Below are positions 14,575 to 50,086 of a stretch of DNA of 64,000 nt, piece by piece. This DNA comes from a virus (Duplodnaviria > Heunggongvirae > Uroviricota > Caudoviricetes). The DNA is taken from the IMG/VR virus record IMGVR_UViG_3300036768_001066. The stretch is one strand, 5' to 3'. The notes below the pieces were generated by a model. It made no database searches and was not told where the DNA came from. It saw only the letters and a list, made by a program, of their open reading frames with translations. The stretch's first letter is position 1. Each line of letters opens with the position of its first letter. Made by a program: the position numbers and the translations under genes.

Positions 14575-15478
14575 TCATCTTGTGCACGAGCGCTCGATCT
14601 GCATCTGGTGGTACGCCTCGTTGGACAGTATGGTCTCTTCCGGATTGTCGTTGAACCAGTTCTCCTTGAATTTTTCCGCCGCTGCTTGGTCAACTACGAA
14701 CACGTTATCCACTTTATTGAGATTGATAACTGCCTGGACCTTGTCCGAATCATAGTGCCAGTTGTGATTATCCACTTTTCCGTCACCCCACTCTATCCCG
14801 CAGTAGATGAACCCGTCGTTCATCAGGCTGGCGTACTGATGATTCTTAGGCGGGGACACGCTCAAATCGAGCAACCTCCGACTCCCGTCTGTGCCATAAT
14901 TCCCATTGTGCTCCTTGCTCCTAATCCTGTTGGCCGTATCTCGGCTCACCGATGACGTGAATCGTGAACCTGCGAATATCGCATCGTGAACCTGCGAATA
15001 TCGCATTCGTGAGGTATGTCGGGTTCGGCTCGGCAAACAAGAAATGATCCACAACTTGCACTGGGTGGGACTCGATGTAGTCGAGCACATCGTAAAGGCC
15101 CTCGAGCATCTGTTTCTCCACGTACTGCAACTTGTACTCCGTTGGTTCAAACTCGCTGCCGCTCGGAAAATGACCGCGCCCCGCGTCATCGGTCGCGGTG
15201 AATATATCCCTGGTGTCAAAGTTGTACTGTAGCACGATCCTCGACTTACCGTCCATCTTGCGGTGAAAACGCTTTCCGTTTACGAACTCATTGCGATCCT
15301 TATCCCAATCATCACCACAATACACCTCCAGAGAGCCAGAGCCGTCCTCGTGCAGGCACATCTCCATGCCGCGCACGCGCATGGACCAGGAATTGATCAT
15401 GACGTCGGCGCATAGCCTGGGGTCGGTTTTTATTCTGGAGACTCTAAGCACGTGCTTATTTTTTATCAATATCGACAT
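14575..15478 (-). pseudogene. hypothetical protein gene split by a 22-bp perfect tandem duplication
   Basis: ORFs 14921-15511 and 14575-15219 overlap in different frames. Both encode the peptide AIFAGSR across the two copies of CGTGAACCTGCGAATATCGCAT (14963-14984 and 14985-15006). Removing one copy joins ...PNPTYLTNAIFAGSR to FTSSVSRDTANRIRSKEHNGNYGTDG... into a single ~300-aa ORF. The N-terminal half of ORF 14575-15219 is Arg/Ser/Cys-rich out-of-frame junk. Confidence 0.5.
14963..15006. repeat. 22-bp perfect tandem duplication (x2) inside a coding region
   Basis: CGTGAACCTGCGAATATCGCAT appears twice back-to-back. The length is not a multiple of 3, so it produces a frameshift. Confidence 0.8.
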
Positions 15479-15849: not shown

Positions 15850-16980
15850 CTACTTCTTTTTGACGATGTGAGACAACGCGTTTTTCTCATGCAAATTTGC
15901 AATCAACTCGATGTAGGTACCATACTCCGCGATCTCTTCTGCGCTGTAACCTTCGGTTTCACCGATGCTCTTGAAGTTATTTTGCCAATATTTTATAGAG
16001 TATTTCATGCAGCCGATTTGAATCTCATCTGAGCCCCAATACGACACGTGATGTCTTGATCCGTTGAAGCTGAGAGAGCGCACGATAACGCATTCCTCGA
16101 TGCTCGCGCCGTCGCCGATGATCGTGCCGTCGCCGATGATCGCGTACCGGCTGATTTTCGCGTCCCATCCGATGCTCGCGCCGTCGCCGATGATCGCGCC
16201 GTCGCCGATGCTCGCGCACCGGCCGATTTTCGCGCCTTCGCCGATTTTCGCGCCCCGGCCGATGTTCGCGCGGGGGCCGATGCTCGCGCCGTCGCCGATG
16301 ATCGCGCCGTCGCCGATGCTCGCGCGGGGGGCGATGATCGCGCCTTCGCCGATGATCGCGCGGGGGCCGATGTTCGCGCGGGGGGCGATGCTCGCGCCGT
16401 CGCCGATGCTCGCGCCCCGGCCGATGCTCGCGCCCCGGCCGATGTTCGCGCCTTCGCCGATGTTCGTGCGGGGGCCGATGCTCGCGTCCCATCCGATGTT
16501 CGCGCCGTCGCCGATGCTCGCGCCTTCGCCGATGTTCGTGCGGGGGCCGATGATCGCGCCGTCGCCGATGCTCGCGCGTGGGCCGATTTTCGCGCGTGGG
16601 GCGATGCTCGCGCCTTCGCCGATGATCGCGCCGTCGCCGATGATCGCGCCGTCGCCGATGTTCGTGCCCCGGCCGATGCTCGCGCCCCGGCCGATGCTCG
16701 CGCCTTCGCCGATGTTCGTGCGGGGGCCGATGCTCGCGTCCCATCCGATGCTCGCGCCTTCGCCGATGTTCGTGCGGGGGCCGATGCTCGCGCCTTCGCC
16801 GATGCTCGCGCCGTCGCCGATGCTCGCGCCCCGGCCGATGATCGCGCCGTCGCCGATGCTCACGCGCTGGCCGATGCTAATGCCACGCTTTTTGAACTCA
16901 GCGGAGATGTCGCTGAGTTTATCGTACTCGAATGTTTCCCACCGTGACTTTTCCAGTGTAAAAAGTTTTACCGATTTCAT
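15850..16980 (-). CDS. hexapeptide-repeat (left-handed beta-helix) protein, ~44 consecutive repeats of x-x-[SNIT]-I-G-x
   Basis: Repeats of the form GASIGD / GASIGP / RTNIGE / GASIGW / DASIGP fill ~270 aa, between a short N-terminal region (MKSVKLFTLEKSRWETFEYDKL...) and an ~80-aa non-repeat C-terminal domain. The start is set at the internal ATG 16980 because the longer ORF would overlap the upstream gene. The repeat DNA is visibly GC-richer than the flanks and has strict 18-bp periodicity. Confidence 0.7.
   Translation of the reverse strand: MKSVKLFTLEKSRWETFEYDKLSDISAEFKKRGISIGQRVSIGDGAIIGRGASIGDGASIGEGASIGPRTNIGEGASIGWDASIGPRTNIGEGASIGRGASIGRGTNIGDGAIIGDGAIIGEGASIAPRAKIGPRASIGDGAIIGPRTNIGEGASIGDGANIGWDASIGPRTNIGEGANIGRGASIGRGASIGDGASIAPRANIGPRAIIGEGAIIAPRASIGDGAIIGDGASIGPRANIGRGAKIGEGAKIGRCASIGDGAIIGDGASIGWDAKISRYAIIGDGTIIGDGASIEECVIVRSLSFNGSRHHVSYWGSDEIQIGCMKYSIKYWQNNFKSIGETEGYSAEEIAEYGTYIELIANLHEKNALSHIVKKK
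16064..16900. repeat. 18-bp periodic coding repeat array (GC-rich) underlying the hexapeptide-repeat gene
   Basis: Iterations of cgccgatgctcgcgcc[n]. The spurious long ORFs in other frames (16025-16744 minus, 16064-17140 plus) come from this periodicity. Confidence 0.7.
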
Positions 16981-33584: not shown

Positions 33585-35503
33585 TAAATGATATTGAGAG
33601 CCAGAGATGCGACAAGCCAGATCCGCCGTATTTTGCCGGACGCATTGCAATAGTCATGCCGTTCAAGAATACCAAAGACGCGGATGGCAACAGCCTAATT
33701 CTCAGGTCCGCCGCCGTGGCATTGAACCCCACCGAGATGCGCGGTCCGAACGAGATTATACTTCTCGCCATCGACGACGGAGCCACCGACGGGAGCCGGG
33801 AACTTCTCGAGAGTATCGTGCAAGAGCACACTCGGAGGCTCGTAATCCTTAATGGCAGCGGCCGCGGACCGGCCGCTGCACGAAATGTTGCACTCGAGTA
33901 CATAAGGAGTTTGGACAACACGCCGGAAGCTTTCACTCACGTGGCATTTTGTGATAGCGACGACATGTGGTTCCCATGGCACCTGGCCCGTAGCTTGCAG
34001 GCCATTGATGACGGGTATGATATGGTGTATTCGAACGTCGAGTGCGAGAACGAGAAGGGCGAGCCTTTGCAGATATTCGGCATACCGAATCCGGAGGAGT
34101 TCGATTATGAGTTGCTCAAGCAGGGCAATTATATCTTCATATCAACCGTGGTCATGAAGAGGGAGTGTATAGACGTCGGTCAGTTCTCCGAGGATGCCGT
34201 CCCGATGGAGGACTGGGAGTACTGGTTGCGCGTTGCCGCGAAGTATCGGGTCAAACACGTACACGCAAAGAAGCCGAGCATAATCTACACATGGAAGAGC
34301 ACGGGCTCGTACTATACGGCAGAGGACTCGCATGCCGCTAAATTAAGAATACAACGGAAGATGAATTTACAAGATCCAATGAATGTCGAGGGATGGCTCT
34401 CCAGGGCGGAGGGCGAGTTCCTCGCAAAAAACGCCGAGGGCCGCAGATGTATAGAGATAGGCTCGTACAAGGGCAAGAGCGCTTGTTTTATGGCGCCGAA
34501 GGCGACGAGCATCGTGTGCATAGACACGTTCAAGGCGGACAACGGCGGACAGACTCAGATGCAGTCGCTCACCACCTACGTTGATTTCGCAAGGAACACC
34601 GCGCATCTCAACAACGTCACACCGCTCATTGGTATGTCGCAGAACGTGCACCAGTTGCTGAAGAACGACGAGTTCGACTTCATATTCATAGATAGCATGC
34701 ACGATTACGAGTCGGTCATGAACGATGTAAAGAACTACCTGCCCAAGCTGAAGGACGGCGCCGTGATAATGTTTCACGACTACTTCGAGCGCGACTGGCC
34801 GGGTGTTGTCAGGTGCGTCAACGAGTTATTTGGCGGCCCTGACGAACTCGTCGATACAATAGCGAAGGTGACAGTTACCGCAGAGAGGAGGTTCGACCTC
34901 GCTATCAAGTTCGCTGGGATGACATCCAGCGTTGATACTATCCCGAGCAATGAACCAAAGTTAGAGTTGACTCCTGATGTATCGGATTTCGAGAAGGGCT
35001 CACTCGATGGTAAAGTCATAGTGATAGCCCCATGGGCTGCTAAGTTGCCGGGGATGGAAAACGCCAAGAATTACCAGGACTGGCCGGAGGTGGTTGGCAT
35101 GCTTCGCGCACTCGGCGCTTACACCATACAGGTAGGTGTTGCTGGCGAGAAGTTGGTCGGATGCGACGAAGTCATACTGAACGCGGCGCCCGATAAACTC
35201 CTAAAGATCCTCAACGCATGCGATACGTTCGTGTCGGTGGACTCGTTCTTCCCTCATTTTGCAGCGTACCACAACAAAAAAGGTGTGGTTATTTTTTCGA
35301 AGTCGGACCCAAAAATTTTTGGACATTCCATCCACCTAAACCTCTTAAAATCAAGAGAATATTTGCGCCCGGACCAGTTCAGATGGTGGCGCGATGTTGC
35401 CTTAGATAAATCAGCCTTTGTGACTCCAAATGAGGTAGTTGCGGGTGTTTTGGAAATCTTAAAAGATGCGGAAATATATACAGAGCTGCCCGAAAGAAAG
35501 TGA
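33581..35503 (+). CDS. tri-domain enzyme: GT2 glycosyltransferase, class-I SAM methyltransferase (TylF/MycF-like), GT9-like C-terminal domain
   Basis: N-terminus IAIVMPFKN...LAIDDGATDGS...DSDDMW (GT2). Middle CIEIGSYKGKSA...FDFIFIDSMHDYESV...MFHDY (Methyltransf_24-like). C-terminus VIVIAPWAAK...FVSVDSFFPHFAAY (heptosyltransferase-like). ATGA overlap with the upstream gene. Confidence 0.7.
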   Translation: MINDIESQRCDKPDPPYFAGRIAIVMPFKNTKDADGNSLILRSAAVALNPTEMRGPNEIILLAIDDGATDGSRELLESIVQEHTRRLVILNGSGRGPAAARNVALEYIRSLDNTPEAFTHVAFCDSDDMWFPWHLARSLQAIDDGYDMVYSNVECENEKGEPLQIFGIPNPEEFDYELLKQGNYIFISTVVMKRECIDVGQFSEDAVPMEDWEYWLRVAAKYRVKHVHAKKPSIIYTWKSTGSYYTAEDSHAAKLRIQRKMNLQDPMNVEGWLSRAEGEFLAKNAEGRRCIEIGSYKGKSACFMAPKATSIVCIDTFKADNGGQTQMQSLTTYVDFARNTAHLNNVTPLIGMSQNVHQLLKNDEFDFIFIDSMHDYESVMNDVKNYLPKLKDGAVIMFHDYFERDWPGVVRCVNELFGGPDELVDTIAKVTVTAERRFDLAIKFAGMTSSVDTIPSNEPKLELTPDVSDFEKGSLDGKVIVIAPWAAKLPGMENAKNYQDWPEVVGMLRALGAYTIQVGVAGEKLVGCDEVILNAAPDKLLKILNACDTFVSVDSFFPHFAAYHNKKGVVIFSKSDPKIFGHSIHLNLLKSREYLRPDQFRWWRDVALDKSAFVTPNEVVAGVLEILKDAEIYTELPERK

Positions 35504-35557
35504 GACTTTTTCGGGGATTGTTCTATAAAAAAAAACAAACAATTTTTCAGAAGAGAG

Positions 35558-38101
35558 ATGGAAGTAATCGAAACTAAAACAGAGAAAAAATCCTACAGCT
35601 ACGCTGAGGTGCTCGAGAAGGCAAAAAGCTACTTCGGTGGCGACGAGTTGGCGGCGAGTGTTTGGATTAACAAGTACGCATTGAAGGATTCCGATGGCAA
35701 CATCTACGAGCTGACCCCGGAGGACATGCACCGTAGGATTGCGTCGGAGATCGCCAGGGTCGAGGCCAAGTTCCCGAACCCTGTGAGTGAGGAAGAGTTC
35801 TTTTCTCTACTCGATAGGTTCAGGTACATAATACCTCAAGGCAGCCCGATGGCAGGTATCGGCAACAACCTGCAGAAGATTTCTTTGTCCAACTGTTTCG
35901 TGGTTGGTAACCCAGACGGAATGGGTGATTCTTACGGTGGCATCATGAGGATAGACGAGCGCATTGCACAGCTACAGAAGAGGCGTTGTGGCGTGGGCAC
36001 GGACTTGTCCGACATTAGGCCAGCGGGCACTGCCGTCAATAATGCAGCAATCACGTCCACTGGTATAGTTCCATTCATGCAGCGCTATTCGAACACAACC
36101 CGAGAGGTCGCGCAGGATGGGCGTCGTGGGGCACTTATGTTGTCCGTTTCTATCCGGCACCCGGAGTCCGAGGCTTTCATCGATGCTAAGATGGATAGCA
36201 CGAAGGTCACCGGAGCTAACGTTTCTGTGAAGATCCACGATGATTTCATGGATGCCGTACTTGCGGGCCGGATGTACAAGCAGCAGTGGCCGATATACGG
36301 CGATGGGCGCATTCACAAGGAGATCGACGCCGCTGCATTATGGAAGAAGATCATTCATAATGCGTGGAAGTCTGCGGAGCCGGGCGTTTTGTTCTGGGAT
36401 AAGATCATTAAGGAATCTCCGGCCGATTGCTATTCTGCATTCGGGTTCAGGACCGTATCTACTAACCCGTGTGGTGAGTTGCCATTATGTTCTGGCGATT
36501 CTTGCCGATTACTTGCTTTGAATCTTTATGCGTATGTTCGTAATCCGTTCACTCCGGATGCTTACTTCGATTTTGAGTTGTTCGACAAGCACGTTCGCAT
36601 AGCGCAGAGGATGATGGACAATATTGTCGAGCTTGAGCTCGAGAAGATTGATGATATTATAACCAAAATCAAATCTGATCCAGAGAGCGCAGAGATTAAG
36701 TTCAACGAGCTTTCTATGTGGGAGGAGATTCGTCAGAAGTGCGCTAATGGTCGCAGGACTGGAACTGGTGTTACGGCCGAGGGTGATATGCTTGCAGCGC
36801 TTGGACTTCGTTATGGTACAAAGGAGGCAACTGCATTTGCCGAGTCTGTGCACAAGGCACTCGCCATATCCGCATACAAGAGTTCGGCAATTATGGCGAA
36901 GGAACGCGGCGCGTTTCCTATTTATGATGAGAAGCTCGAGGTCAACAATCCGTTCTTGAACAGGCTCAAGGAAGCAGACCCGGAGTTGCGCGAATTGCTC
37001 GCCAAGTACGGTCGTAGAAATATCGCTCTGTTGACCATAGCTCCTACCGGCACTGTGTCTTTGATGACGCAGACAACGTCAGGTGTAGAGTGCGCGTTCA
37101 TGGCTGCGTACATGCGTCGTAAGAAGATCAACCCTAACGACAAGAGCGCGAGGGTCGATTTCGTTGATGAGGTCGGAGATAGCTGGGAGGAGTATAACGT
37201 GTTCCACCACCACTTCAAAACCTGGATGATTGTCAACGGATACGATCCAGATGCGGTTGCTCACATGTCTACCGAGGAGCTCAATAAAGTAATTGAGAAG
37301 TCACCTTACTACAAGGCCATGGCTAATGATGTTGACTGGGTGGAGAAGGTTAACATGCAGGGTGCGATACAGAAATGGATTGACCACTCAATATCGGTTA
37401 CGGTTAACCTGCCCAATCACGTGACGGAGGAACTCGTAAACGAGGTTTACGTCGCGGCTTGGAAGGCCGGCTGCAAGGGTTGCACCATATACAGGGACGG
37501 GTCACGTTCCGGAGTTCTTGTGGAGAAGAAGGAGAAGGAGGAGGACAAGCCTAAGGCCAAGGACAATAATGCGCCTCGCCGTCCGAAGACTCTCGAGTGC
37601 GACATTCACAGGTTCATGAACAAGGGCGAACAGTGGATAGGTTTTGTTGGGCTGTTTGATGGCAGACCTTATGAAGTGTTCACAGGTAAGGCCGAGCACA
37701 TAAAGGTGCCCGGAAAGATCGATACTGGCCGTATACGCAAAACCAAAACCGACAGTGGATCAAAGTACGACTTCATCTACGTGGACAAGGGTGAGGAAGT
37801 TGTGGTTGAGTGGTTGAACAAGTCTTTCGACCCGCATTACTGGAATTACGCCAAGATGCTGTCAGGAATTCTGAGGCATGGAATGCCCCTGCCTTATGTG
37901 GTAGATCTTATCACTTCATTGAATCTCGATGACGAGGTGATAACCACGTGGAAGGGTGGCATCCAGAGGATGATCAAGAAGTACATCCCGGACGGCACTC
38001 GGGCGACCGATAAGAAGTGCAAGGACTGCGGGTCCGAGTCTGTAATATTCCAGGAGGGGTGTTTGACCTGTACTTCGTGTGGAAGTTCGAAATGTTCGTA
38101 A
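35558..38101 (+). CDS. nrdJ: ribonucleotide reductase, class II (adenosylcobalamin-dependent, NrdJ-type) with C-terminal zinc ribbon
   Basis: Active-site NPCGE(L). IAPTGTVSLM block. 847 aa. C-terminus CKDCGSESVIFQEGCLTCTSCGSSKC (Cys4 ribbon). Confidence 0.85.
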   Translation: MEVIETKTEKKSYSYAEVLEKAKSYFGGDELAASVWINKYALKDSDGNIYELTPEDMHRRIASEIARVEAKFPNPVSEEEFFSLLDRFRYIIPQGSPMAGIGNNLQKISLSNCFVVGNPDGMGDSYGGIMRIDERIAQLQKRRCGVGTDLSDIRPAGTAVNNAAITSTGIVPFMQRYSNTTREVAQDGRRGALMLSVSIRHPESEAFIDAKMDSTKVTGANVSVKIHDDFMDAVLAGRMYKQQWPIYGDGRIHKEIDAAALWKKIIHNAWKSAEPGVLFWDKIIKESPADCYSAFGFRTVSTNPCGELPLCSGDSCRLLALNLYAYVRNPFTPDAYFDFELFDKHVRIAQRMMDNIVELELEKIDDIITKIKSDPESAEIKFNELSMWEEIRQKCANGRRTGTGVTAEGDMLAALGLRYGTKEATAFAESVHKALAISAYKSSAIMAKERGAFPIYDEKLEVNNPFLNRLKEADPELRELLAKYGRRNIALLTIAPTGTVSLMTQTTSGVECAFMAAYMRRKKINPNDKSARVDFVDEVGDSWEEYNVFHHHFKTWMIVNGYDPDAVAHMSTEELNKVIEKSPYYKAMANDVDWVEKVNMQGAIQKWIDHSISVTVNLPNHVTEELVNEVYVAAWKAGCKGCTIYRDGSRSGVLVEKKEKEEDKPKAKDNNAPRRPKTLECDIHRFMNKGEQWIGFVGLFDGRPYEVFTGKAEHIKVPGKIDTGRIRKTKTDSGSKYDFIYVDKGEEVVVEWLNKSFDPHYWNYAKMLSGILRHGMPLPYVVDLITSLNLDDEVITTWKGGIQRMIKKYIPDGTRATDKKCKDCGSESVIFQEGCLTCTSCGSSKCS

Positions 38102-38228
38102 AAATTATTCCATAATTTGTATGACCCTTACGGTGGCGGTGCTTAACGAAAAACGTGCCGCCGTCGATGAAACATCTAAGTTCTGCCTGCATATAATGAT
38201 CCAATAGTAACTTAAACCAAACGTTTCC

Positions 38229-38471
38229 ATGGAAAACAACGTTCAACAACCGGCGGCAAACAACCAGGTTCCTGAGAATCTGACGCCACAGCAAGCACTT
38301 GGTCTTCTTATCCAAGGCGTTCACTTCGCACAGTCTAAAGGAGTATACACCCTCAAGGATGCAGCTCTCCTCGACAAAGCGGTATCAGTGTTCGCTGTAG
38401 AGCAGAAGCCTGAGGCCACAGCAACTCCTGCGACAGCAGAAACAGCTCCTGTGGCAGAAGCTAAGGCTTAA
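38229..38471 (+). CDS. small conserved hypothetical protein (80 aa), Ala/Thr/Pro-rich C-terminus
   Basis: ORF with its own TATAAT box (38192-38197) and a strong downstream terminator. Confidence 0.45.
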   Translation: MENNVQQPAANNQVPENLTPQQALGLLIQGVHFAQSKGVYTLKDAALLDKAVSVFAVEQKPEATATPATAETAPVAEAKA

Positions 38472-38490
38472 GCGCCGGCTTTCAAGAAAC

Positions 38491-38524
38491 AAGCCCGATC
38501 TTAGCAGGTCGGGCTTTTCTCTTT
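38491..38524 (+). terminator. rho-independent terminator (plus strand)
   Basis: 8-bp stem AAGCCCGA / TCGGGCTT with a 10-nt loop. Followed by TTCTCTTTG. Confidence 0.65.
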
Positions 38525-38551
38525 GATATATAAGAAAACAAGAGTTCGTTA

Positions 38552-39688
38552 ATGAAAAAGTTGATGAAGTTTGGGGAGTATGCAACCCCGAAAGACTTGC
38601 GGAAAATATACCTGATTCCGCACTCGGATCGGTTCTCTTTCAGTCACATCGACCACCTTGTCCGACGTGTGGCGGAGAATCTGTTCGATCTCGTGATGGC
38701 GCCAGGTATTTTTAAAGACTCCATAAACTCCGAGCTGCCGGTTTACAACTATGGTAATCATGATGAGATATACGACCTGATAGAGAGCGGCGTTTTCAAA
38801 AAGAAGAACATATACAACCACCCCGATAACCTTAAGTACGCCAACGACAAGATAGAGTTCCACAAGGCGATGGATGGTCTTGACTTCGTGCCGAATACCG
38901 TGTTCAAGCAAGAGGACGTATCGAAGCTTAAGTTCCCCATAATAGCCAAACCCAAGGATGGTAGCAAAGGAGAGGGCATCACCGTATTTAAAACCAAGGA
39001 AGAACTTGACAGTTTTAAACCGGAGGACGAAGAATTCAAACTTGATTTGTTCAGCGAGAAGTTCGATCTGAAGAGGGAATTCAGGGTGATAACCGTAAAT
39101 GGCAAGAGGGTGTACATCGCCGAAAGGATCCCGATAAATGAGAAGGCCAAGAGTCTGAGGGAGAGTGCCAACATATTCCCGAGCAAGGACCTATTTGGTA
39201 AGAAGGGAACACTTGACGGTCGTAGCAGCTATAAGTGGGTCGAGATAAAGAACTCGGACCTCGACGATAAGGTGTGGAAGCAGATGGAGTCCATCATGCC
39301 GACTGTCTGTGAGAAACTGAAGCTGCAGGTTATGGGTCTCGACTTCGGTCTCGACTCGAAAGGCAAGGTGTGGATTATAGAAGCCAACACGTGCCCGGGT
39401 CTAAACAAGGACCAGATAGTCAGGATATACTTGGAGATATTTGAAGACTTCTATGGCCGCAAACCAGACGAGGTCACTATGAAGAAGATAAAGCAGATGC
39501 GCGACGAGCTTGTACGCGCGAGCAAGTCCAAGGTAAAGTTTTCGCACTCCGCATCGATGGGAAGAAGGATGGATTGGACCTATAAGGAGGACGGTCGCAA
39601 GACATCTAACGTTAAATTCGATGTTGAGAAGAGCTTTGGCCAGACGCTGAATAGTATTAAGGACCGCGCTAAAAAGAAGAAGATATGA
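38552..39688 (+). CDS. ATP-grasp domain enzyme (RimK-like ligase)
   Basis: PIIAKPKDGSKGEGI (ATP-binding loop), KREFRV, MGLDFGLD and WIIEANTCPGL (ATP-grasp C-terminal signature). Confidence 0.7.
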   Translation: MKKLMKFGEYATPKDLRKIYLIPHSDRFSFSHIDHLVRRVAENLFDLVMAPGIFKDSINSELPVYNYGNHDEIYDLIESGVFKKKNIYNHPDNLKYANDKIEFHKAMDGLDFVPNTVFKQEDVSKLKFPIIAKPKDGSKGEGITVFKTKEELDSFKPEDEEFKLDLFSEKFDLKREFRVITVNGKRVYIAERIPINEKAKSLRESANIFPSKDLFGKKGTLDGRSSYKWVEIKNSDLDDKVWKQMESIMPTVCEKLKLQVMGLDFGLDSKGKVWIIEANTCPGLNKDQIVRIYLEIFEDFYGRKPDEVTMKKIKQMRDELVRASKSKVKFSHSASMGRRMDWTYKEDGRKTSNVKFDVEKSFGQTLNSIKDRAKKKKI

Positions 39689-40371
39689 ACATTTCGGTTT
39701 TAATTCCGACCCGCGGCGACCGACCGCAATTTCTATCCAATGCACACAGGTTGCTCGAAGCTCAGACGCTGAAGCCGACCCACGTTGAAGTCGTTGACGA
39801 TCCGCCTAAGGACGCGGCCAAGAAGGATATTACCTGGAGATACCGCATTGGGTGTGAACGCATCCTCGCGGCCAACCCGAATACCGAGGCCATCGTGCTC
39901 ATAGAGGACGACGACTGGTATGCGCACAATTACATTGAGACCATGTACAACAACTGGATTAACGCAGGTCGCCCGCTCGTGTACGGCATAGGTGAGACAA
40001 TCTACTACCATCTCGGTATGCGCGCCTGGTTGAAGTACACGCATTTACCAAGGGCCTCGGCCATGAGCACGCTCATGTCTGCAGCTGGCGCCTCCAAGAT
40101 GCGGTGGCCTGATGATAACTACGTGTTCACCGACATAGAGATATGGAAGAAGTTGACTGGCAAGACATTCATTCCGGACAAGCCAATATCCATAGGTATT
40201 AAGGGATATAAAGAAGGTGCTTTATTTGGAGGTATAGGTCATAGATGGGACCTATGTCAGTATAAAATAAATGATGAAGAACTGAATTGGCTTAAAGATA
40301 AAGTAGATAGTACAAGTTTCGAGTTTTATAAAAAAATGTCCGATCTCGCCAGAAATACCGGTACCAAGTAG
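39685..40371 (+). CDS. GT2-like glycosyltransferase
   Basis: ISVLIPTRGDRPQFL ... VLIEDDDWY (DxD). ATGA overlap with the ATP-grasp gene. Confidence 0.55.
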   Translation: MNISVLIPTRGDRPQFLSNAHRLLEAQTLKPTHVEVVDDPPKDAAKKDITWRYRIGCERILAANPNTEAIVLIEDDDWYAHNYIETMYNNWINAGRPLVYGIGETIYYHLGMRAWLKYTHLPRASAMSTLMSAAGASKMRWPDDNYVFTDIEIWKKLTGKTFIPDKPISIGIKGYKEGALFGGIGHRWDLCQYKINDEELNWLKDKVDSTSFEFYKKMSDLARNTGTK

Positions 40372-40380
40372 ATATAAGAT

Positions 40381-41219
40381 ATGGAAATATATACGGGAGC
40401 AGCTGTTTATATAATTAAAAATTTAACTACCTCTAAATTTTATGTAGGTTCTGCTATAAACTATTATCAACGATTCTACCATAAAAGTTCTGGACATCTT
40501 GCTAAGTTAAATAAGGGATTACACCATAATATCTACCTACAACGTGCTTGGAACAAATACGGACAAATCGACTTCGTATTTGATATTATAGAAAAAATAG
40601 AAGATGTACATAAGTTGCTTGAACGCGAACAATTTTTTATAGATATACTGAGAGCATGTGAATATGGATATAATATAAACCCCACAGCCGGCAGCAGGTA
40701 TGGTACGATATTATCTGATGAGATAAAGAATAAAATTAGTAAATCGAGAACTGGTAAATGCGTTGGTACTGATAACGGATTTTTTGGTAAACAACATTCT
40801 GTAGAAACTAAGAAGATAATTAGTGATGCTAATAAAGGTCGGTTTATTGGTAGTGCTAATCCATTTTTGGTAAACAACATTCTGTAGAAACTAAGAAGAT
40901 AATTAGTGATGCTAATAAAGGTTGGGTTATGTCAGATGAAACAAAAACTAAAATATCAGAATCGATGTCGGGTACCAACAATCCAATGTTCGGTATTAAA
41001 AAATTTGGTAAAGCCAATCCATTTTATGGAAAAACTCATAATAAAGATACCAGAGATAAGATACGAAAAACTAAGAAAAATTTAATGCCGATTGACATGC
41101 GTACCGAAGATGACCAAATAATTCACTTCGATAGTTTAAATCTTGCTGTTAAGCACAGTGGTTTACATAAAAATACTATAAAAAATTGTGTGTTTCCGGT
41201 AAATCTAAAAATGGTATGA
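40381..41219 (+). pseudogene. GIY-YIG homing endonuclease with NUMOD3-like repeats, reading frame broken by an 83-bp insertion carrying a 59-bp direct repeat
   Basis: N-terminus VYIIKNLTTSKFYVGSAINYYQRFYHKSSGH (GIY-YIG). ORF1 stops at 40887. ORF2 (frame 0) is open from 40860 and re-encodes FGKQHSVETKKIISDANKG from the second repeat copy. Deleting 83 bp (40781-40863) restores one ~250-aa ORF with NUMOD3-type motifs (GKQHSVETKKIIS, GKTHNKDTRDKIRKT). Confidence 0.55.
40781..40922. repeat. 59-bp perfect direct repeat (40781-40839 and 40864-40922) separated by 24 bp
   Basis: TTTTTGGTAAACAACATTCTGTAGAAACTAAGAAGATAATTAGTGATGCTAATAAAGGT occurs twice. Period is 83 bp, not a multiple of 3. Confidence 0.8.
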
Positions 41220-41229
41220 CTTTTAAATT

Positions 41230-42012
41230 ATGCGTTTAGGAGTGGCATACAACGTTTTTGACGGTATCGAACTACTCGAATCGTCGATCGACAGTGTTCG
41301 TCCGGTTGCCGATTATATCTGTGTAATATACCAGACAACCTCGAACCTCGGCAATTTCATAAACGCGGATGTAGAGGCGGAAGTGCGCAGACTGAGGATG
41401 TCTGGCAAGATAGATGAGATGGCTCGGTACGTTCCTAAGGTTAATGGGGGTCACGTTAACGAACTGGCCAAGCGCAACTGGGGGCTCGACCTCGCCAAGT
41501 CAGTCGGGTGCACACACTTCATGACGATGGACGTGGACGAGCTGTACGATAAGGACGAGCTCATGTTCGCCAGGCAGATGGTCGAGGCAGGCGGGTTCCA
41601 ATCGAGCGCGTGCAAGATGCTCACGTACTACCGGTCCGGAGAGTTCATAGTGGATCCGCCCGAAGAATATTACGTCCCGCTGATATATAAAATAGACGGT
41701 CGTGTATTCTCGATGAGTTCGCGGTGGCCGGTTGCTGCAGATCCTACAAGAAGGATGCTGCCAGGCAACATCAAGCTGTTTGAGCGAAATGAGATACAGA
41801 TGCACCACTTCTCGTATGTTCGCAAGGATATACGTGCAAAGCTGATAAACTCGTCCGCTTCTGTTAATTTCAAGGACAGGATTGAGGAGATAGCCCAGCA
41901 CTACGAGAACTGGCAGTACGGGCAGAAGTGCCTGTTCGCCGGCAAGGAGAGAAGGATGTACGACGTCAAGAGAGTGGACAATAAATTCAACATACAGGAC
42001 CAATGCGCATAA
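41230..42012 (+). CDS. putative glycosyltransferase (GT-A fold, DxD)
   Basis: FMTMDVDELYD DxD-like motif. 260 aa. Sits in the glycan island. Fold assignment not certain. Confidence 0.45.
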   Translation: MRLGVAYNVFDGIELLESSIDSVRPVADYICVIYQTTSNLGNFINADVEAEVRRLRMSGKIDEMARYVPKVNGGHVNELAKRNWGLDLAKSVGCTHFMTMDVDELYDKDELMFARQMVEAGGFQSSACKMLTYYRSGEFIVDPPEEYYVPLIYKIDGRVFSMSSRWPVAADPTRRMLPGNIKLFERNEIQMHHFSYVRKDIRAKLINSSASVNFKDRIEEIAQHYENWQYGQKCLFAGKERRMYDVKRVDNKFNIQDQCA

Positions 42013-42458
42013 AAGACCTAAGAGATTTACTCGCACAGCTTCCGGCCGAACTCGACGAGAAGACCGTAGTTATACGGGAATTTGGACATCTTGACGAAGG
42101 CAAGTATTTCAAGCTTGACAAACCGATAGGCCTCGCGCACTACGACGAGGAGACCGGTGAACTCGCTGTCACAGAATCCGAAATGTTCGAGAAATTCAAG
42201 AACGAGGGATGGTTCCCAGTTAAAGAGGGATACGTGAATAAGTACGACGAAGTTAAACACGAAGTTAGCGAAGACGGAGAAGGCGGAGGTCCTGGACCAG
42301 ATTCCGGATTCGGTACTGTTGATTCAGTAAATGGAATGGGTGCTCCGGTTCTTGCATCTCGAGGCGTGACTGGTTCTGGTGACGTTCCAAGTGTTGCACC
42401 GACAAAGAAGAAGAAGAAGCGCAAGATATTGTCGTTCGACAAGTTCTTTACTCGATAA
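42003..42458 (+). CDS. hypothetical protein (151 aa) with Gly-rich linker and poly-Lys C-terminus
   Basis: ORF ending in convergent overlap with the minus-strand block. EDGEGGGPGPDSGFG linker. KKKKKRK near the C-terminus. Confidence 0.4.
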   Translation: MRIKDLRDLLAQLPAELDEKTVVIREFGHLDEGKYFKLDKPIGLAHYDEETGELAVTESEMFEKFKNEGWFPVKEGYVNKYDEVKHEVSEDGEGGGPGPDSGFGTVDSVNGMGAPVLASRGVTGSGDVPSVAPTKKKKKRKILSFDKFFTR

Positions 42459-43098
42459 TCTCTGGCACGATTTCTATGGGTTCGTCGACGCCTTTCAACC
42501 GCCATACGCCGTCGCCCTCCCACCAGTCGTTGACCGTATGGTATGCTATGAAGTCGTAGTTTTCAGATAGCAGTTCCATGAAATCTTTCATTTTGTTGCC
42601 GCCAAGCCCATCGTAAATGTTTGGCTTGTCATCCTTTTCAACCTCGCATTGTATATTCACAATGCGTTTTTCTTTTATCCAAGACTCCATGGTCTTTAGT
42701 ACGGTCAAGTCCATACCCTGTAGATCGGTGACGAGAAGGTCTATCTTCTCTATTCCACGACGCTTTAGGTACTCTGACAAGTTTATGCAAGGAACTTTCA
42801 ACTTCTTTATACCCGTATTGTATAACACCGAGTTGGGATCTTTCATGTGGTGAAACTCTGGGTTGAACGTGCCCATGGATGATGATGCGTCCCACTTCTT
42901 CATTATGTTGAACTCGATATGTCCGGTATCTTTGTCGCACAGGGCGCCGAATACCTTCTTCACCTTTGGTGGGAGTATCTTGGCTGCGCGCGCAATCTTT
43001 CGGGGATTAGCATCGAATCCAATGATGACGTCAAACTTATCTATGAGCTGCATGATGGTATTGCAATTATGAATACCACAGTAAACGAGTGTCTTCAT
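42448..43098 (-). CDS. FkbM-family methyltransferase-like protein
   Basis: VIIGFDANPRK near the N-terminus (FkbM GxDxGAN-type motif). 216 aa. Confidence 0.55.
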   Translation of the reverse strand: MKTLVYCGIHNCNTIMQLIDKFDVIIGFDANPRKIARAAKILPPKVKKVFGALCDKDTGHIEFNIMKKWDASSSMGTFNPEFHHMKDPNSVLYNTGIKKLKVPCINLSEYLKRRGIEKIDLLVTDLQGMDLTVLKTMESWIKEKRIVNIQCEVEKDDKPNIYDGLGGNKMKDFMELLSENYDFIAYHTVNDWWEGDGVWRLKGVDEPIEIVPEIIE

Positions 43099-43099
43099 A

Positions 43100-44755
43100 T
43101 TAGTAGAAATACTTGCTGACTATTTTGTAGTCGGCAAACTGGTTGGCAATATCAGAAAAGTCCTCCTTTACTTTGACCAAGAATGGTATGGTCGTATACA
43201 CCTTGTGACCAGGTTGTACCCTGTAGCACAGGTAATCGTCGAGCGTCATCTCCTCTCCCTTAGTGACTTCGTATATCCTCTGTAGCATGTGCTGACCGCG
43301 TATCAATACGCCGAACACTCCGAAGCAGTTGAGCGAATATACGTTATTGCCTATGTGTCTCGGGTTTGGTAGTCCGTGCCAGTGGCATCCAATGTACAGC
43401 ATTTCCCAGTCTTTGGGAACAGTGGACATTAGCTTCACGAATCTTTTGTTGAAGTCGGGCTGCAGTACAACGTCATCCTCAAACACACATATAGAATTGT
43501 GACCTTTGTCGAGCGCGTCCTTTATGGCATTGCGATGCGAACGCAGACATCCGACGGCACCTTTTATCTTGTCGCCTTGCATATCTCCGTGCCTCATGTG
43601 GTGCGTGCCCTCGATCTTCCATCCGTCCACCGCAAGCCAGCGCGTCACCTTGATGTTGTGCACGTCAAATTGCTGAGAAACCTCGAGCCATCTATCGTGC
43701 CTTCTCTCGAGGTTTATGCAGTACACTTCGTCCACCACATCGTTTAATGGACTTGGAGAAGACCCGAGTCCGAACAGAAGTTCAGGGTAGTTGAAGTACA
43801 TGAAGTCTTCGTATGATAGGAACTGCCTTATGCAGCGCTCATAGTTGTCCCTTATCGCCGGCAGCATCTTCTGGTACATATCAGGCGTCAGGGAGTTAAG
43901 CATCGTCTCGGCCTCGGCCAGGTTGTCTATCTGTATTATGCCGTTCGGATTAAAGAACTGAGCAATGGACGGGCATCCGTAGTATATCGGAACAGTGCCG
44001 GTCATGAAGCAATCTATCAGCTTCTCCGTGAAGTAATAATCCTCCTTCGTGTTCTCTATCGCAAAGGAGAACATGTAATCTTTCAAACCCTCTATCTTAT
44101 CCGGTATGTCGTTGAACCCGCGCCCGTATAAGTCAATCTTAGAGCGCAGGCGTTGCACGATTCTGTGGCGTAGATGATGTCCGCTTGTGAAGTTCTTGTT
44201 TGACGTTATCATCGACACCAGTTTGGTCTTGGGGTGCAGTCCCCAATCCTTCTCCTTTATCCAGCATGACCCGCCCGGAACAAACTTGAACCTGACAGGA
44301 TCGGAGTCGAGCAATGATCGCTTGAACGTAAATACCTTGTTGAACTGCGTTGCATTCTGAGCAAGCCACCCATACTCGTCTGTTGTTATCTCTGGTGACT
44401 CAATCATCCATGCGTACTTAGTCTTGCCGTTAAACATCCCGTGATTCTTGATGCTCGCATCCGTCATGAACACATAGTTGTACGCGTTAACGTTACGATC
44501 CCAGTCGAAATAACGTCTGTCGTCCGGCACGTGCCCGAACAGAGTGTCGGCAAGCGGCACCTTCTTCTTAGTTGCCGGCGGGGTTAGCGGAGCCGGCAAG
44601 CTGCCGACTACCTGCTCTGGCTTGAAATCATCCAAATCCTCCTGGCTGACTGGTGATTGTGGTGTGCTCACTTCTTCTTGTTTTTGTTGCTGGTTCAGTT
44701 TCTTCTGTACAAAATGTACCAACTTGCTTTTGTACTGTTTGCTGAAATATCCCAT
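43100..44755 (-). CDS. bifunctional glycosyltransferase: N-terminal GT10-like (alpha-1,3-fucosyltransferase motifs) + C-terminal GT25 domain
   Basis: FAIENTKEDYYFTEKLIDCFMTGTVPIYYG matches the FucT FxxEN...TEK motifs. C-terminal VYCINLERRHDRW ... GAVGCLRSH ... VFEDDVVL matches GT25 (LPS glycosyltransferase) hallmarks. Confidence 0.65.
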   Translation of the reverse strand: MGYFSKQYKSKLVHFVQKKLNQQQKQEEVSTPQSPVSQEDLDDFKPEQVVGSLPAPLTPPATKKKVPLADTLFGHVPDDRRYFDWDRNVNAYNYVFMTDASIKNHGMFNGKTKYAWMIESPEITTDEYGWLAQNATQFNKVFTFKRSLLDSDPVRFKFVPGGSCWIKEKDWGLHPKTKLVSMITSNKNFTSGHHLRHRIVQRLRSKIDLYGRGFNDIPDKIEGLKDYMFSFAIENTKEDYYFTEKLIDCFMTGTVPIYYGCPSIAQFFNPNGIIQIDNLAEAETMLNSLTPDMYQKMLPAIRDNYERCIRQFLSYEDFMYFNYPELLFGLGSSPSPLNDVVDEVYCINLERRHDRWLEVSQQFDVHNIKVTRWLAVDGWKIEGTHHMRHGDMQGDKIKGAVGCLRSHRNAIKDALDKGHNSICVFEDDVVLQPDFNKRFVKLMSTVPKDWEMLYIGCHWHGLPNPRHIGNNVYSLNCFGVFGVLIRGQHMLQRIYEVTKGEEMTLDDYLCYRVQPGHKVYTTIPFLVKVKEDFSDIANQFADYKIVSKYFY

Positions 44756-44756
44756 G

Positions 44757-45374
44757 TTATTTTAGTTTCCAATTTTCCCAAACAAAATCGTAATTGTATG
44801 TAAGTACGTGTGTCCTTGATAGGCGTGTCCTTATAGCGTCCCTGCGCTGCTGGCACTCCGGATAAAACGTATGGAATTGTACTTGAATATTATCGAGCTT
44901 CAAAAGTTCATCTGTAGTCAGGCAGTCAAGTAGGTCGTATTCGGCGCCCTCTATGTTTATCTTTATCAGGTCCACCTTCTGTATGTTTGCGAGGAACTCG
45001 TGCACCGAGTCTATAGTTATAGGCACCTTCTCGTCGCCCTCCGCGAACATGCCCGATCCATCTGCCGACATCGTTATGGTTGCATCGCTTTTCTCGTGAC
45101 CGAGCGCGGTCTGGTAAACGTGCACCTTTGGGCTGTTGGCGAACATCGCTTTGATGTTCTGGCAGAACGAGGCCACTGGCTCGAACACGTGTATCGTGCA
45201 TCCGTACATGTCGCTGATGGTCTTACCCCATTTGCCCTCGTACCCGCCGAGATCGATGACTACAGAATCCTGCGTTAGCGCATAGTTTACCCTGTGCGTC
45301 TGGTCTCCCCTGTTGTCGAACCACCTTCGTATCTCCGACATGAAGTGGTTGTGTAGCTGTTCTGGTGTCATCAT
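44757..45374 (-). CDS. FkbM-family methyltransferase
   Basis: VVIDLGGYEGKW and DLIKINIEGAEYDLL (FkbM signature). Confidence 0.65.
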   Translation of the reverse strand: MMTPEQLHNHFMSEIRRWFDNRGDQTHRVNYALTQDSVVIDLGGYEGKWGKTISDMYGCTIHVFEPVASFCQNIKAMFANSPKVHVYQTALGHEKSDATITMSADGSGMFAEGDEKVPITIDSVHEFLANIQKVDLIKINIEGAEYDLLDCLTTDELLKLDNIQVQFHTFYPECQQRRDAIRTRLSRTHVLTYNYDFVWENWKLK

Positions 45375-45892
45375 AGTTTTGCGACTAAAATATCATTCGG
45401 TATGTGTCCGTCCTCGTACGAGAATTTGTATCCTTCATTTATTTGTAGGATTTTCTCCTTTATGTCGTTCTCTCCGAACTTGATCTCCGGGTCCTCTACC
45501 TGCCAGCAGCGCATATCGTCCACGAGAATTATGTGGTTCTTGATGCCGTGCCGCTGGATCTGCTCGAACTCCTCTATGAGCGGGCAGTTCTTCTTGCCGT
45601 ACGCAGTCTCACCGGCGGACCAGTGCCCGTCGAGCCAGAACGTTATGGGAGTATCGACATCCTTTATCGCATCGTATAGCACGTCGGCGGAGTCGCCCTG
45701 CACTATCTTGACGTTTGGATTATCCTTGAATCTTGCAACGCAGTGGTTGTAGAATTTCTCGGACAGCTCTATAGATATGACCCTTTTGAACCCGGCGTCA
45801 AGCGCCCCTTGTATACCATCACCCATGTAAGAACCCGTTTCTACGAGGCAGGGATTTAGGTATTTCTTGAATGTATCTTTCTTTATTGGCAT
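45371..45892 (-). CDS. class-I SAM-dependent methyltransferase-like protein
   Basis: Motif I LVETGSYMGDG. Acidic motif ILVDD. Start set at internal ATG 45892 to avoid overlap with the upstream gene. Confidence 0.5.
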   Translation of the reverse strand: MPIKKDTFKKYLNPCLVETGSYMGDGIQGALDAGFKRVISIELSEKFYNHCVARFKDNPNVKIVQGDSADVLYDAIKDVDTPITFWLDGHWSAGETAYGKKNCPLIEEFEQIQRHGIKNHIILVDDMRCWQVEDPEIKFGENDIKEKILQINEGYKFSYEDGHIPNDILVAKL

Positions 45893-45906
45893 AGTATATT
45901 TATTCT

Positions 45907-46650
45907 TTATATTTTTGACCAGTTCTCTGGCAACAAGTCCTTTGTATCGAGGTTGTCGTACGCAGGTCCGAACCATTTGCCAGGCGCTATAACTCGTTTG
46001 TTGGGGTTTTTATTAAGGTACGCGCCCCACCAGCTGAAGCTCGAGTTTGCTATGACGTTGTGCTTGCACTTGGACATCAACATCAGGTCGTATACGTCCG
46101 GGTGCTGCTCGTCTACAAAAACAAACTTATTACCTACAAAATTCTCCCTACACCAGTTTATATCGTCAGAGAATATGACAAACGTACAATCACCCATCAC
46201 CTCCATAGCCCTGGTGTAATATGCCATGGGCATGACCGGATGGTGTTGCGACAGATTCACATAGTCCGTCCTCCTTATATGCAAAGAACAGGTATTGTCT
46301 CCGAACGATGCCGCGAGCGCGTCTATTTTTTCGGCGTGCTCTGGCTTTAGCTCGAAGTACCCGAGAGCCTCCTCTTTGTACTTGTCGAAGTACCGCCATG
46401 ACTGCAGGTATCCTACAATATCAAAGATGCCCTCGCCGACCTTTATCTCGCCGTAATGAAACCCTACCTCGTCCACCTTCGTAGCCGGCACTATTCCGGC
46501 AGGGAGCTCTTTTTTCATGTAGTGTGAGTACTTCCACTCTGGGAATATGTATTCGTGTCCGTTGGCGCGAGCTATTCCAATAACGGATGCTATCTGGAAC
46601 ATCTGGTTGCCGAGGCGGCCGTATTTGCCGAGATTGCTGAATGTTATCAT
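45907..46650 (-). CDS. alpha-1,2-fucosyltransferase (GT11 family)
   Basis: Canonical GT11 motif I GRLGNQMFQIAS at the N-terminus. HIRRTDY motif. C-terminal SSFSWWGAYL motif. Confidence 0.8.
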   Translation of the reverse strand: MITFSNLGKYGRLGNQMFQIASVIGIARANGHEYIFPEWKYSHYMKKELPAGIVPATKVDEVGFHYGEIKVGEGIFDIVGYLQSWRYFDKYKEEALGYFELKPEHAEKIDALAASFGDNTCSLHIRRTDYVNLSQHHPVMPMAYYTRAMEVMGDCTFVIFSDDINWCRENFVGNKFVFVDEQHPDVYDLMLMSKCKHNVIANSSFSWWGAYLNKNPNKRVIAPGKWFGPAYDNLDTKDLLPENWSKI

Positions 46651-47552
46651 AGACCTCTAATGTATTTCTTAGTTTTATCGTCAAGCTCTCCAGTTATGTC
46701 CATGCCGTTATCCGATTGCCACTGTATTATGGCCGCTCTTGTCTGTTCGTCGTATACACCAGTGCAGGACACGTTCATGCCGAGATGTATCATTCGGTTT
46801 TGCATTATTATTATATCGGTGTTACAGTCTCCGAACTTTGGGATGTATTCTGAAGGTTGTTCGTACGGGTAGAACTTGTAGTACGAATTGTTTATTATGC
46901 CGTCATCGTCCGGGTAGAAGTGGAAGTAGTCCCACGCGTATAATTTTTTAATTCGTTCAACCTGCTCCGGGAATGGGACGTACGAGTCCTTGTCAGATAT
47001 GTTCTCCCTGAAGTCCGGAACGTTTGTGCCGAGGATCTGGTTTATTCGTGGTATGACAGGGCCGTCTTCTATCCGCAGTATGTGGTTGAACCGGTCCCTT
47101 ATCGGTCCTTTGTGGCAGTTGTGGTTGTCCGGAAACAGGCACTGCAGATTTAGATGGTGCTCTATATTGGAGTCCATGTCCCGTTCTTCCAGAAACCTCA
47201 GCAGGTCCTCCATCCGCTCAATCTTGTGTTTGTTCAGGTTTGTCACACCGAGCACTTCAAGAACAGAATGGTTCAAAACCGACACAAGTCTGTCCACTGG
47301 GTTGCGGGTCACGAGGATGCTTACGTAGTCCTTTAAATTTTCGTCGTTGGATATTTTGAACGGGATTTCTATGTAGGGTACGACCATGTGCACCCTGTTG
47401 GAGGGCAGAGAAACCCCGTTGCCGTTTATCAATGCCACGTGCGAGTAGGTATCGCGGTCGACGAAGTAGAACCAGTTTTTGAGAGACGTGCAGGCGCACC
47501 TCGCGTTCCAGTACAGTATGAATTTTCTATTGCCGTTTATCAGTGGATACAT
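46647..47552 (-). CDS. sulfotransferase-like domain fused to a C-terminal peptidoglycan-binding (PG_binding_1-like) domain
   Basis: ILVTRNPVDRLVS matches the sulfotransferase 3'-phosphate-binding motif (RxPxxRxxS). C-terminus TGVYDEQTRAAIIQWQSDNGMDITGELDDKTKKYI matches the PG-binding helix repeats. Start at ATG 47552 overlapping the upstream stop (TAATG). Confidence 0.5.
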   Translation of the reverse strand: MYPLINGNRKFILYWNARCACTSLKNWFYFVDRDTYSHVALINGNGVSLPSNRVHMVVPYIEIPFKISNDENLKDYVSILVTRNPVDRLVSVLNHSVLEVLGVTNLNKHKIERMEDLLRFLEERDMDSNIEHHLNLQCLFPDNHNCHKGPIRDRFNHILRIEDGPVIPRINQILGTNVPDFRENISDKDSYVPFPEQVERIKKLYAWDYFHFYPDDDGIINNSYYKFYPYEQPSEYIPKFGDCNTDIIIMQNRMIHLGMNVSCTGVYDEQTRAAIIQWQSDNGMDITGELDDKTKKYIRGL

Positions 47553-48172
47553 TATTGTCCTGGAGGTTTCATTAGTCTGGTGTAGTCCATATATGCGTTC
47601 TGTATGTCGCTGTGCCCCGGCTTCTGCCACGCTATGCTCGGATTGAACACGTAGCAGTTGTGTGTTTTCTGAAAATCGGTATACGTGACGTCTATCTGGG
47701 ATTTGAACTTCTCCACCTCTGCTATCACCTCGGCCGCCATCTTCTTGGTTATGCCGTAGTGGCTCGTCGTGTACGTCCTAACTATCTTGGACACATTTTG
47801 CGTCACCGGTATCGGGTGGGCTATGTGGTTGCCCCCGAGATACAGCATGTCCCAATCGGCAGGCACCTGACCGATCCATTGGTGGAACTGGGCCGGCGCG
47901 TGCACGGAGAACTCTATGTCGTCCTCGAGGATCAGAATCCTCTCCCATCCCTCGTGCAGCATTCTCTTTAGAATGGTGGTGTGACTTAGCGAACACCCGA
48001 CTTCGCCAGGCGTTATTGCACAGTTTGGCGGCAATGCAATGGTGCTTCCGTCGACTGCGGAGAACCGTACGACGTCGATGCCGGCCTGCTCGAATTCCTT
48101 CAGGCACAGTTCCCATTTGTCAGTACGCTTATCAAGGTTGACGCAGAATATCTTGTCGAAGTACTTATTCAT
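47552..48172 (-). CDS. GT25-family glycosyltransferase
   Basis: IFCVNLDKRTDKW ... EVGCSLSHTTIL ... ILEDDIEF, typical of the GT25 family. Confidence 0.7.
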   Translation of the reverse strand: MNKYFDKIFCVNLDKRTDKWELCLKEFEQAGIDVVRFSAVDGSTIALPPNCAITPGEVGCSLSHTTILKRMLHEGWERILILEDDIEFSVHAPAQFHQWIGQVPADWDMLYLGGNHIAHPIPVTQNVSKIVRTYTTSHYGITKKMAAEVIAEVEKFKSQIDVTYTDFQKTHNCYVFNPSIAWQKPGHSDIQNAYMDYTRLMKPPGQ

Positions 48173-49997: not shown

Positions 49998-50004
49998 CTA
50001 TCTA

Positions 50005-50086
50005 TAAGTTATGGCTTTTATTATATACTGCTCACCAAATAAGTTACGGCTTTTATTATATACTGCTCACCAAACATTAAGTTTTA
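50005..50086. repeat. 35-bp tandem direct repeat (2.3 copies) in a divergent intergenic region
   Basis: TAAGTTA[T/C]GGCTTTTATTATATACTGCTCACCAAA at 50005-50039 and 50040-50074, then a partial CATTAAGTTTTA. It lies between the divergently oriented gene blocks, with starts at 49997 (minus) and 50138 (plus). Confidence 0.75.

Follow-up and report, generated by a model that had tools for sequence, protein, structure and literature searches.

The junction between a GT2-like gene and its downstream neighbour, p260, in a 64,000-nt stretch of phage DNA (hereafter the window; the source phage contig is 373,759 bp long) appears to hold a free-standing GIY-YIG homing gene that was imported together with its flanks and was later inactivated by two mutations of the slippage type. 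From comparison of the sequences, we put the probability of this reading at approximately 0.78. Judged by its predicted frames, the gene is now a pseudogene and represents a known kind of element, that of T4 Seg-like "intronless homing". Features of the region are listed in Table 1.

Table 1. Features of the endonuclease gene and its surroundings (positions in the window).
Feature	Position	Strand	Remarks
GT2-like gene, upstream neighbour	39685..40371	+	228 aa; weak Pfam Glycos_transf_2 match; 132 homologues
Left co-converted flank (predicted)	39804..40344	+	~540 nt; L008 identity 0.47-0.80
Low-GC block	40185..41230	+	31.4% GC vs 53.6% left and 51.0% right; GT tail and endonuclease gene
Endonuclease ORF1	40381..40887	+	GIY-YIG catalytic domain and first NUMOD3 units; ends at frameshift-induced TAG
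Repeat copy 1	40781..40839	+	59 nt; one extra T before it, making a T6 run
Spacer	40840..40863	+	unique 24 nt, CGGTTTATTGGTAGTGCTAATCCA; NUMOD3 linker RFIGSANP in ORF1 frame
Repeat copy 2	40864..40922	+	59 nt; first five bases (40864-40868) form the T5 run, lesion 1
Endonuclease middle part, ORF2	40866..41219	+	second frame; NUMOD3 units and first two thirds of C-terminal helix-turn-helix-like module
(TG)3 run	41187..41192	+	lesion 2 (an additional TG) probably lies here
Endonuclease last 14 codons and stop	41195..41239	+	third frame; 10-nt overlap with ATG of next gene
p260, downstream neighbour	41230..42012	+	260 aa; conserved family, no Pfam match
Right co-converted flank (predicted)	41236..41398	+	~160 nt; mismatch 34% to 5% at ~41392-41398

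The original prediction, made from the sequence and its open reading frames, had named the gene a GIY-YIG/NUMOD3 homing endonuclease, and both Pfam matches and alignment to the I-TevI catalytic domain bear this out. The 168-aa product of ORF1 matches the Pfam GIY-YIG domain (PF01541; 1e-8; 35.8 bits, with a cut-off of 22.6) and NUMOD3 (8.7e-10). The catalytic domain of I-TevI (1LN0/1MK0) aligns over residues 8-100 (E=5.6e-11). All of its Tyr, Tyr, Arg, His, Glu and Asn positions are conserved: Y10, Y21, R31, H48, E81 and N98 correspond to the catalytic residues Y6, Y17, R27, H40, E75 and N90 of I-TevI. The second frame, open from position 40860 just past a TAA at 40857-40859, contains three NUMOD3 matches (PF07460; 2.9e-21; 75.5 bits). 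Pfam offered no model detecting the C-terminal module; a profile built from 12 homologues was used instead, and this profile matches a helix-turn-helix-like module, aligning to the ORF2 frame as ...HFDSLNLAVKHSGLHKNTIKNC. The predicted make-up is that of the I-TevI/T4-Seg type, in which a nuclease domain at the N-terminus is followed by NUMOD3 units in tandem and, at the C-terminus, by a helix-turn-helix-like module. The nuclease and DNA-binding parts do not lie in one continuous ORF, the frame changing at 40864-40868 and again near 41187-41195; for this reason the gene was filed as a pseudogene of the family rather than as an active member. The disruption itself had been recognized from the start.

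Among 1373 homologues of the endonuclease the closest are 37-44% identical, and no full-length relative closer than these was found. Scans of viral and metagenome contigs with patterns for the T5/T6 junction, the repeat core or the N-terminal sequence shared with L011 (see below) all came out empty, and megablast of 39600-42100 against the phage collection gave no match. The gene is the sole endonuclease copy within the 64-kb window. It stands free between two complete genes, in neither an intron nor an intein; the JGI annotation names the N-terminal product "group I intron endonuclease" despite the lack of a match to a group I intron or any other Rfam family in 39000-42500 at E≤1. The same annotation lists ORF2, from its own ATG at 40929 to 41219 (96 aa), as a separate hypothetical protein (P0241); in principle it might give rise to a DNA-binding fragment on its own.

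The first two frames part at an exact 59-nt direct repeat with an offset of 83 nt (67 nt at 97% identity), a length far above chance. As originally described, the second frame re-encodes the same 19 aa, FGKQHSVETKKIISDANKG, and deletion of 83 nt yields a single ORF, of 251 aa. The accompanying claim that the gene was broken by an 83-bp insertion is probably wrong. Only 59 of the 83 nt are duplicated (67 if two mismatches are allowed). The remaining 24 nt, the spacer, match neither flank at an offset of 83, and no second copy of them within 3 mismatches is present in the 64-kb window. Read in the ORF1 frame they specify RFIGSANP followed by F, a NUMOD3 inter-unit linker, the DNA of which is 79% identical to 41005-41032 (FGKANPFYGK) and 71% identical to 40763-40790. 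Repeat copy 1 and the spacer together measure exactly 28 codons (NGFFGKQHSVETKKIISDANKGRFIGSA), which is the period of the preceding NUMOD3 unit, and this spacing recurs in homologues. The copies differ at their heads, copy 1 being headed by a T6 run (GGATTTTTTGG) and copy 2 beginning with a T5 run (CCATTTTTGG), so that 83 is 84 minus 1. Addition of a single T gives ...SANPFFGKQHS... in frame and a 279-aa protein, restoring the frame as well as the 83-nt deletion does and with a higher NUMOD3 score (104.1 vs 83.2 bits); all 37 positions of the NUMOD3 model are then matched across the junction.

These observations make it unlikely that a 251-aa gene was interrupted by an 83-bp insertion or duplication, excision of which would restore the original. 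To be sure, the 251-aa product, which would correspond to an ancestor with one NUMOD3 unit fewer, has core spacings (28 and 17 aa) that are normal for the family, and an identity extending over 59 nt denotes a recent duplicative event. However, slippage should copy 83 contiguous bases, and 40840-40863 has no donor in the window and encodes a well-formed linker; moreover, the unit is exactly one base short of 84, the missing base falls in a homopolymer, and the one-T repair is better by 21 bits. Because the spacer is unduplicated and encodes a proper linker, and because it is the presence of T5 in place of T6 that breaks the frame, the insertion is considered unlikely, and lesion 1 is best described, as read from these alignments, as the shortening of a T6 run by one base within a tandem array of NUMOD3 units. 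Exact internal NUMOD3 repeats of at least 10 aa are found in 7 of 119 intact homologues, reaching 26 aa in P0002; duplication or conversion of units is thus normal for the family and does not constitute a lesion per se. The identity of 59/59 in the core as against ~70% in the linkers suggests that two neighbouring NUMOD3 units, which would have existed beforehand, recently underwent in-register conversion or partial duplication. The base presumed lost would have stood at the left border of the stretch of identity, and its loss could possibly belong to the same event. The unduplicated spacer, the T6/T5 difference, the frame change near 41190 and the start of the low-GC tract within the upstream gene had all been overlooked originally.

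Other tandem repeats occur in the window. TRF reported two-copy duplications at 50004-50074 (35 nt, 97%), 14961-15012 (22 nt, 96%) and 11389-11426 (18 nt, 100%), which are probably the further cases of "slippage" counted in the original prediction. A GC-rich array at 16098-16878, within overlapping long ORFs on both strands, consists of ~43 copies of an 18-nt unit (76% matches) with a higher-order period of 108 nt (~7 copies, 80%).

A second frame change lies near the end of the gene. Homologues with a matching C-terminal module finish in ...I..C.G..K...G[FY].W. The ORF2 frame fits the C-terminal profile up to ...NTIKNC, and the continuation, SGKSKNGMTFKLCV followed by a stop codon, is found in the third frame. 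Removing one TG from TTGTGTGTTTCC (41186-41197) joins the two as ...IKNCVSGKSKNGMTFKLCV and a stop, raising the profile score to 18.5 bits, compared to 9.8 for the unrepaired sequence and 10.5 for the head alone; a score of 18.5 was reached by 2 of 5000 composition-matched shuffles. The alternative of a one-base insertion gains only 1.6 bits. Going by these scores, the existence of lesion 2 is better established than its exact form. Once the two repairs are combined, a single ORF of 285 aa is obtained which retains all the I-TevI catalytic residues and terminates at a TAG (41237-41239), overlapping the ATG of p260 by 10 nt. Since the predicted nuclease residues are intact, the inactivation would be recent.

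It seems very unlikely that the gene is intact and that the two frame breaks are sequencing or assembly errors arising at the repeat, the homopolymer and the dinucleotide run. Error-prone contexts are certainly involved (T5/T6 and (TG)3), and a 59-nt repeat is a known assembly hazard. The Logan assembly of SRR11727984 contains two contigs that match the window with 100% identity over 33685-40810 and 40893-48012 and whose ends (40810 and 40893) each fall exactly 30 nt into a copy of the repeat. With k, presumably, of 31, and with two left and two right contexts for the 59-mer, breakage of the contigs within the repeat is what one expects. The repeat is therefore not the artefact of one assembler, since an independent assembly breaks at it. 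A k=31 graph cannot separate one copy, two copies or a mixture, and the T5 and TG sites are given as outside the Logan contig coverage. However, the spacer is joined to the repeat on both sides, so that the succession repeat-spacer-repeat must exist in the reads, and the truncated products of 168 and 96 aa are both encoded on the same two JGI contigs (which may not be independent). A T5 run is seldom the site of consensus errors in Illumina data. Of the 185 homopolymer runs of at least 5 nt that the window contains, 49 lie in long ORFs, spanning 24.7 kb, that show no break at all. It would be odd for two unlike errors to fall within 330 nt with none elsewhere nearby, and the two lesions, which differ in type, both affect the one gene that is expected to be under relaxed selection.

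Still less credible is the idea that the split is functional, through either a programmed -1 frameshift on A_UUU_UUG or separate action of a 168-aa nuclease and a 96-aa DNA-binding protein. A -1 slip at CCA_UUU_UUG would yield exactly ...NPF(F/L)GKQHS..., ORF2 has an ATG of its own with AAGG 9-12 nt ahead of it, and the catalytic residues have been preserved. Against this, A_UUU_UUG is not a canonical X_XXY_YYZ heptamer, downstream structure is absent (fold z=-0.02), a further recoding event would be required near 41190, where the frame changes again, and no orthologue spanning the frameshift site was found. Recoding of TAG, as known from some huge phages, was considered as well and discarded, as a TAA follows 5 codons further on in the ORF1 frame.

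The site occupied by the endonuclease gene is empty in related phages, as a comparison proposed with the original prediction has now revealed. Homologues of the GT2-like protein with 64-75% identity are encoded on long Logan contigs having the same gene order as the window (GT2/methyltransferase, ribonucleotide reductase, 80-aa ORF, ATP-grasp, GT2-like, p260, p150). In five lineages (L008, L009, L012-14, L015-16 and L017-18), the stop codon of the GT2-like gene overlaps the start codon of p260 as ATGA, with nothing between. The site is occupied in the window and in L011, a contig from another sample (ERR6221073). The GT2-like protein of L011 has 228 aa and the same 7-aa C-terminal extension; an 11-nt gap follows, then an endonuclease ORF of which 29 residues are visible before the contig ends, 25 of these being identical to the window (83% at the nucleotide level). 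L011 was considered as a direct donor and rejected, since its identity to the window across the divergent block described below is only 70-83%. Relatives on viral contigs, found through p260 (L001-L006), have 36-48% amino acid identity and are too distant to define the site.

The gene thus lies exactly at the junction of two normally overlapping genes, in a glycosylation cluster. Its placement between glycosyltransferase-type genes, as first described, agrees with Pfam matches showing the cluster to be rich in glycosyltransferase, methyltransferase and sulfotransferase genes. The p260 family comprises 180 proteins at E≤1e-60 and always adjoins a GT2-like gene. In L005 (5413-8001), p260 is fused inside an 862-aa multi-domain protein. 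The adjoining ribonucleotide reductase is 61-62% identical to those encoded by uncultured huge phages (LR745206, 635 kb) and by a phage contig from human faeces. In L009 (837-4481) this enzyme has 1214 aa, compared to 847-848 aa elsewhere, and matches Pfam Intein_splicing and LAGLIDADG_3, which suggests that a second, different homing element resides in the same neighbourhood of a relative.

Comparison with L008 delimits the footprint of the putative import. The window and L008 are 94.5-94.7% identical over 33625-38094 and 41236-47243. In bins of 60 nt, identity runs at 0.92-1.00 up to ~39800 and drops to 0.47-0.80 for 39800-40340; the endonuclease block is missing from L008; and to the right identity is 0.70-0.72 for 41240-41420 and 0.97 beyond. 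The maximum-likelihood breakpoints lie at 39804, where mismatch jumps from 3.1% to 37.8%, and at ~41392-41398, where it falls back from 34% to 5%. Similarity to L008 collapses only between 39804 and ~41398, in a background that is ~95-99% identical around the divergent block. Codons ~40-228 of the GT2-like gene and the first ~55 codons of p260 fall within this block. Double-strand-break repair with co-conversion of flanks yields a pattern of this sort in the homing of free-standing endonuclease genes (PMC2988022).

The third lineage, L017, was used to polarize the exchange. In the flanks L017 is ~80% identical to both the window and L008. Within most of the block, L008 and L017 retain an identity of 0.70-0.84, and the window is at 0.49-0.72 relative to both of them, most clearly in the tail of the GT2-like gene and the start of p260. 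This three-way profile, combined with the five empty-site lineages, suggests that the window carries the derived, imported allele. In the head of the GT2-like gene (39812-40170) the three sequences are about equally distant (0.63-0.80), with the flanks of the window and L008 at 93-99% identity. The direction of exchange would be given by the GT tail and the p260 start rather than by this head. Alleles of the GT2-like gene may be exchanged repeatedly. It had been suggested that the endonuclease gene explains the shuffling of the island. This was overstated: the genes of the window are arranged in the same order as those of relatives with an empty site, and what can be shown is a local replacement of a 1.6-kb allele.

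Nested within the putatively imported block is a tract of low GC content, the only such island in the 64-kb window. Its limits were set by a maximum-likelihood fit of two change points together with the composition profile. The tract takes in the last ~62 codons of the GT2-like gene, the GC3 of which falls from 0.70 to 0.26 after codon 166 (Fisher p=3.6e-9). A corresponding shift, from 0.77 to 0.31, occurs at codon 164 in L011 and none is seen in the genes at empty sites. The low-GC GT tail is still of the family type, with 66-70% identity to P0122/P0123. On these compositional grounds the tract is presumably an older foreign segment, common to the window and L011. Because the shift is common to L011 and absent from the empty-site genes, it suggests an earlier event, preceding the split between the donor lineage and L011. 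In that event the endonuclease gene and ~186 nt of homologous GT tail would have been brought in from a low-GC genome.

It seems likely, then, that a phage carrying the endonuclease gene co-infected a cell with an endonuclease-less phage of the L008 type and served as the template for repair of a double-strand break in the latter's genome. Repair would have copied the endonuclease gene along with ~540 nt of the donor GT2-like gene and ~160 nt of the donor p260 gene, giving rise to the imported block from 39804 to ~41398. The donor lineage would already have borne the older low-GC segment (40185-41230). Decay would have followed, with one T lost at 40864-40868 and one TG gained at 41187-41192.

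Homing genes reportedly undergo a cycle of invasion, fixation and decay, as proposed by Goddard and Burt in 1999, and decay is expected once empty targets run out. As in other defunct homing genes, the frame is lost in the window and the surrounding genes are intact; unlike in those, decay is at a very early stage, with two slippage lesions and intact motifs. I-TevIII of T4 is presented as a degenerate or defunct homing endonuclease gene in PMC2790892 and PMC2988022.

The free-standing GIY-YIG endonucleases of T4, SegA-G, among which the term "intronless homing" was defined for SegF (PMC2988022), offer the closest analogy. Like the window gene, they combine a GIY-YIG nuclease with a C-terminal DNA-binding region and are encoded between phage genes without an intron or intein; their presence varies among related phages, their flanks are co-converted in a manner that fits double-strand-break repair, and they show small overlaps or short gaps with their neighbours (in the window, the gene starts 9 nt past the upstream stop codon and, in its repaired form, overlaps the downstream ATG by 10 nt). 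Unlike them, the window gene is distant in sequence, without a close Seg orthologue, is located in the glycosylation cluster of an uncultured huge phage (374 kb or more) and is frameshifted. I-TevI, the td intron endonuclease, is likewise modular, its nuclease domain being attached by a tether to a DNA-binding domain, and its catalytic domain is alignable. It differs in being intron-encoded, the window gene having no Rfam match, and the DNA-binding part of the window gene is a longer NUMOD3 array (4-5 units), to which the I-TevI DNA-binding domain gave no match at E≤0.01.

The mechanism itself is textbook and the general significance of the case accordingly modest. The region nonetheless provides an unusually clear natural case of the whole life history of a free-standing homing gene, drawn from metagenomes of uncultured huge phages: sites with and without the gene, two co-conversion tracts, one nested in the other, whose breakpoints are placed to the base, and the onset of decay. 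An annotation trap is corrected as well. Near-identical adjacent NUMOD3 units can make the loss of one base from a homopolymer resemble a large insertion, and the annotation had split the gene into a "group I intron endonuclease" and a "hypothetical protein" as if these were unrelated ORFs. A more speculative idea, to which we attach a rather small chance of being right, is that homing acts as an allele-swapping device for phage glycosylation genes. If so, each homing event would exchange ~80% of the GT2-like enzyme, counted from its C-terminus, and the first ~55 codons of p260 for versions that are ~30-35% divergent at the DNA level. A selfish element would then drive the diversification of glycans in huge phages, and might be retained for that.
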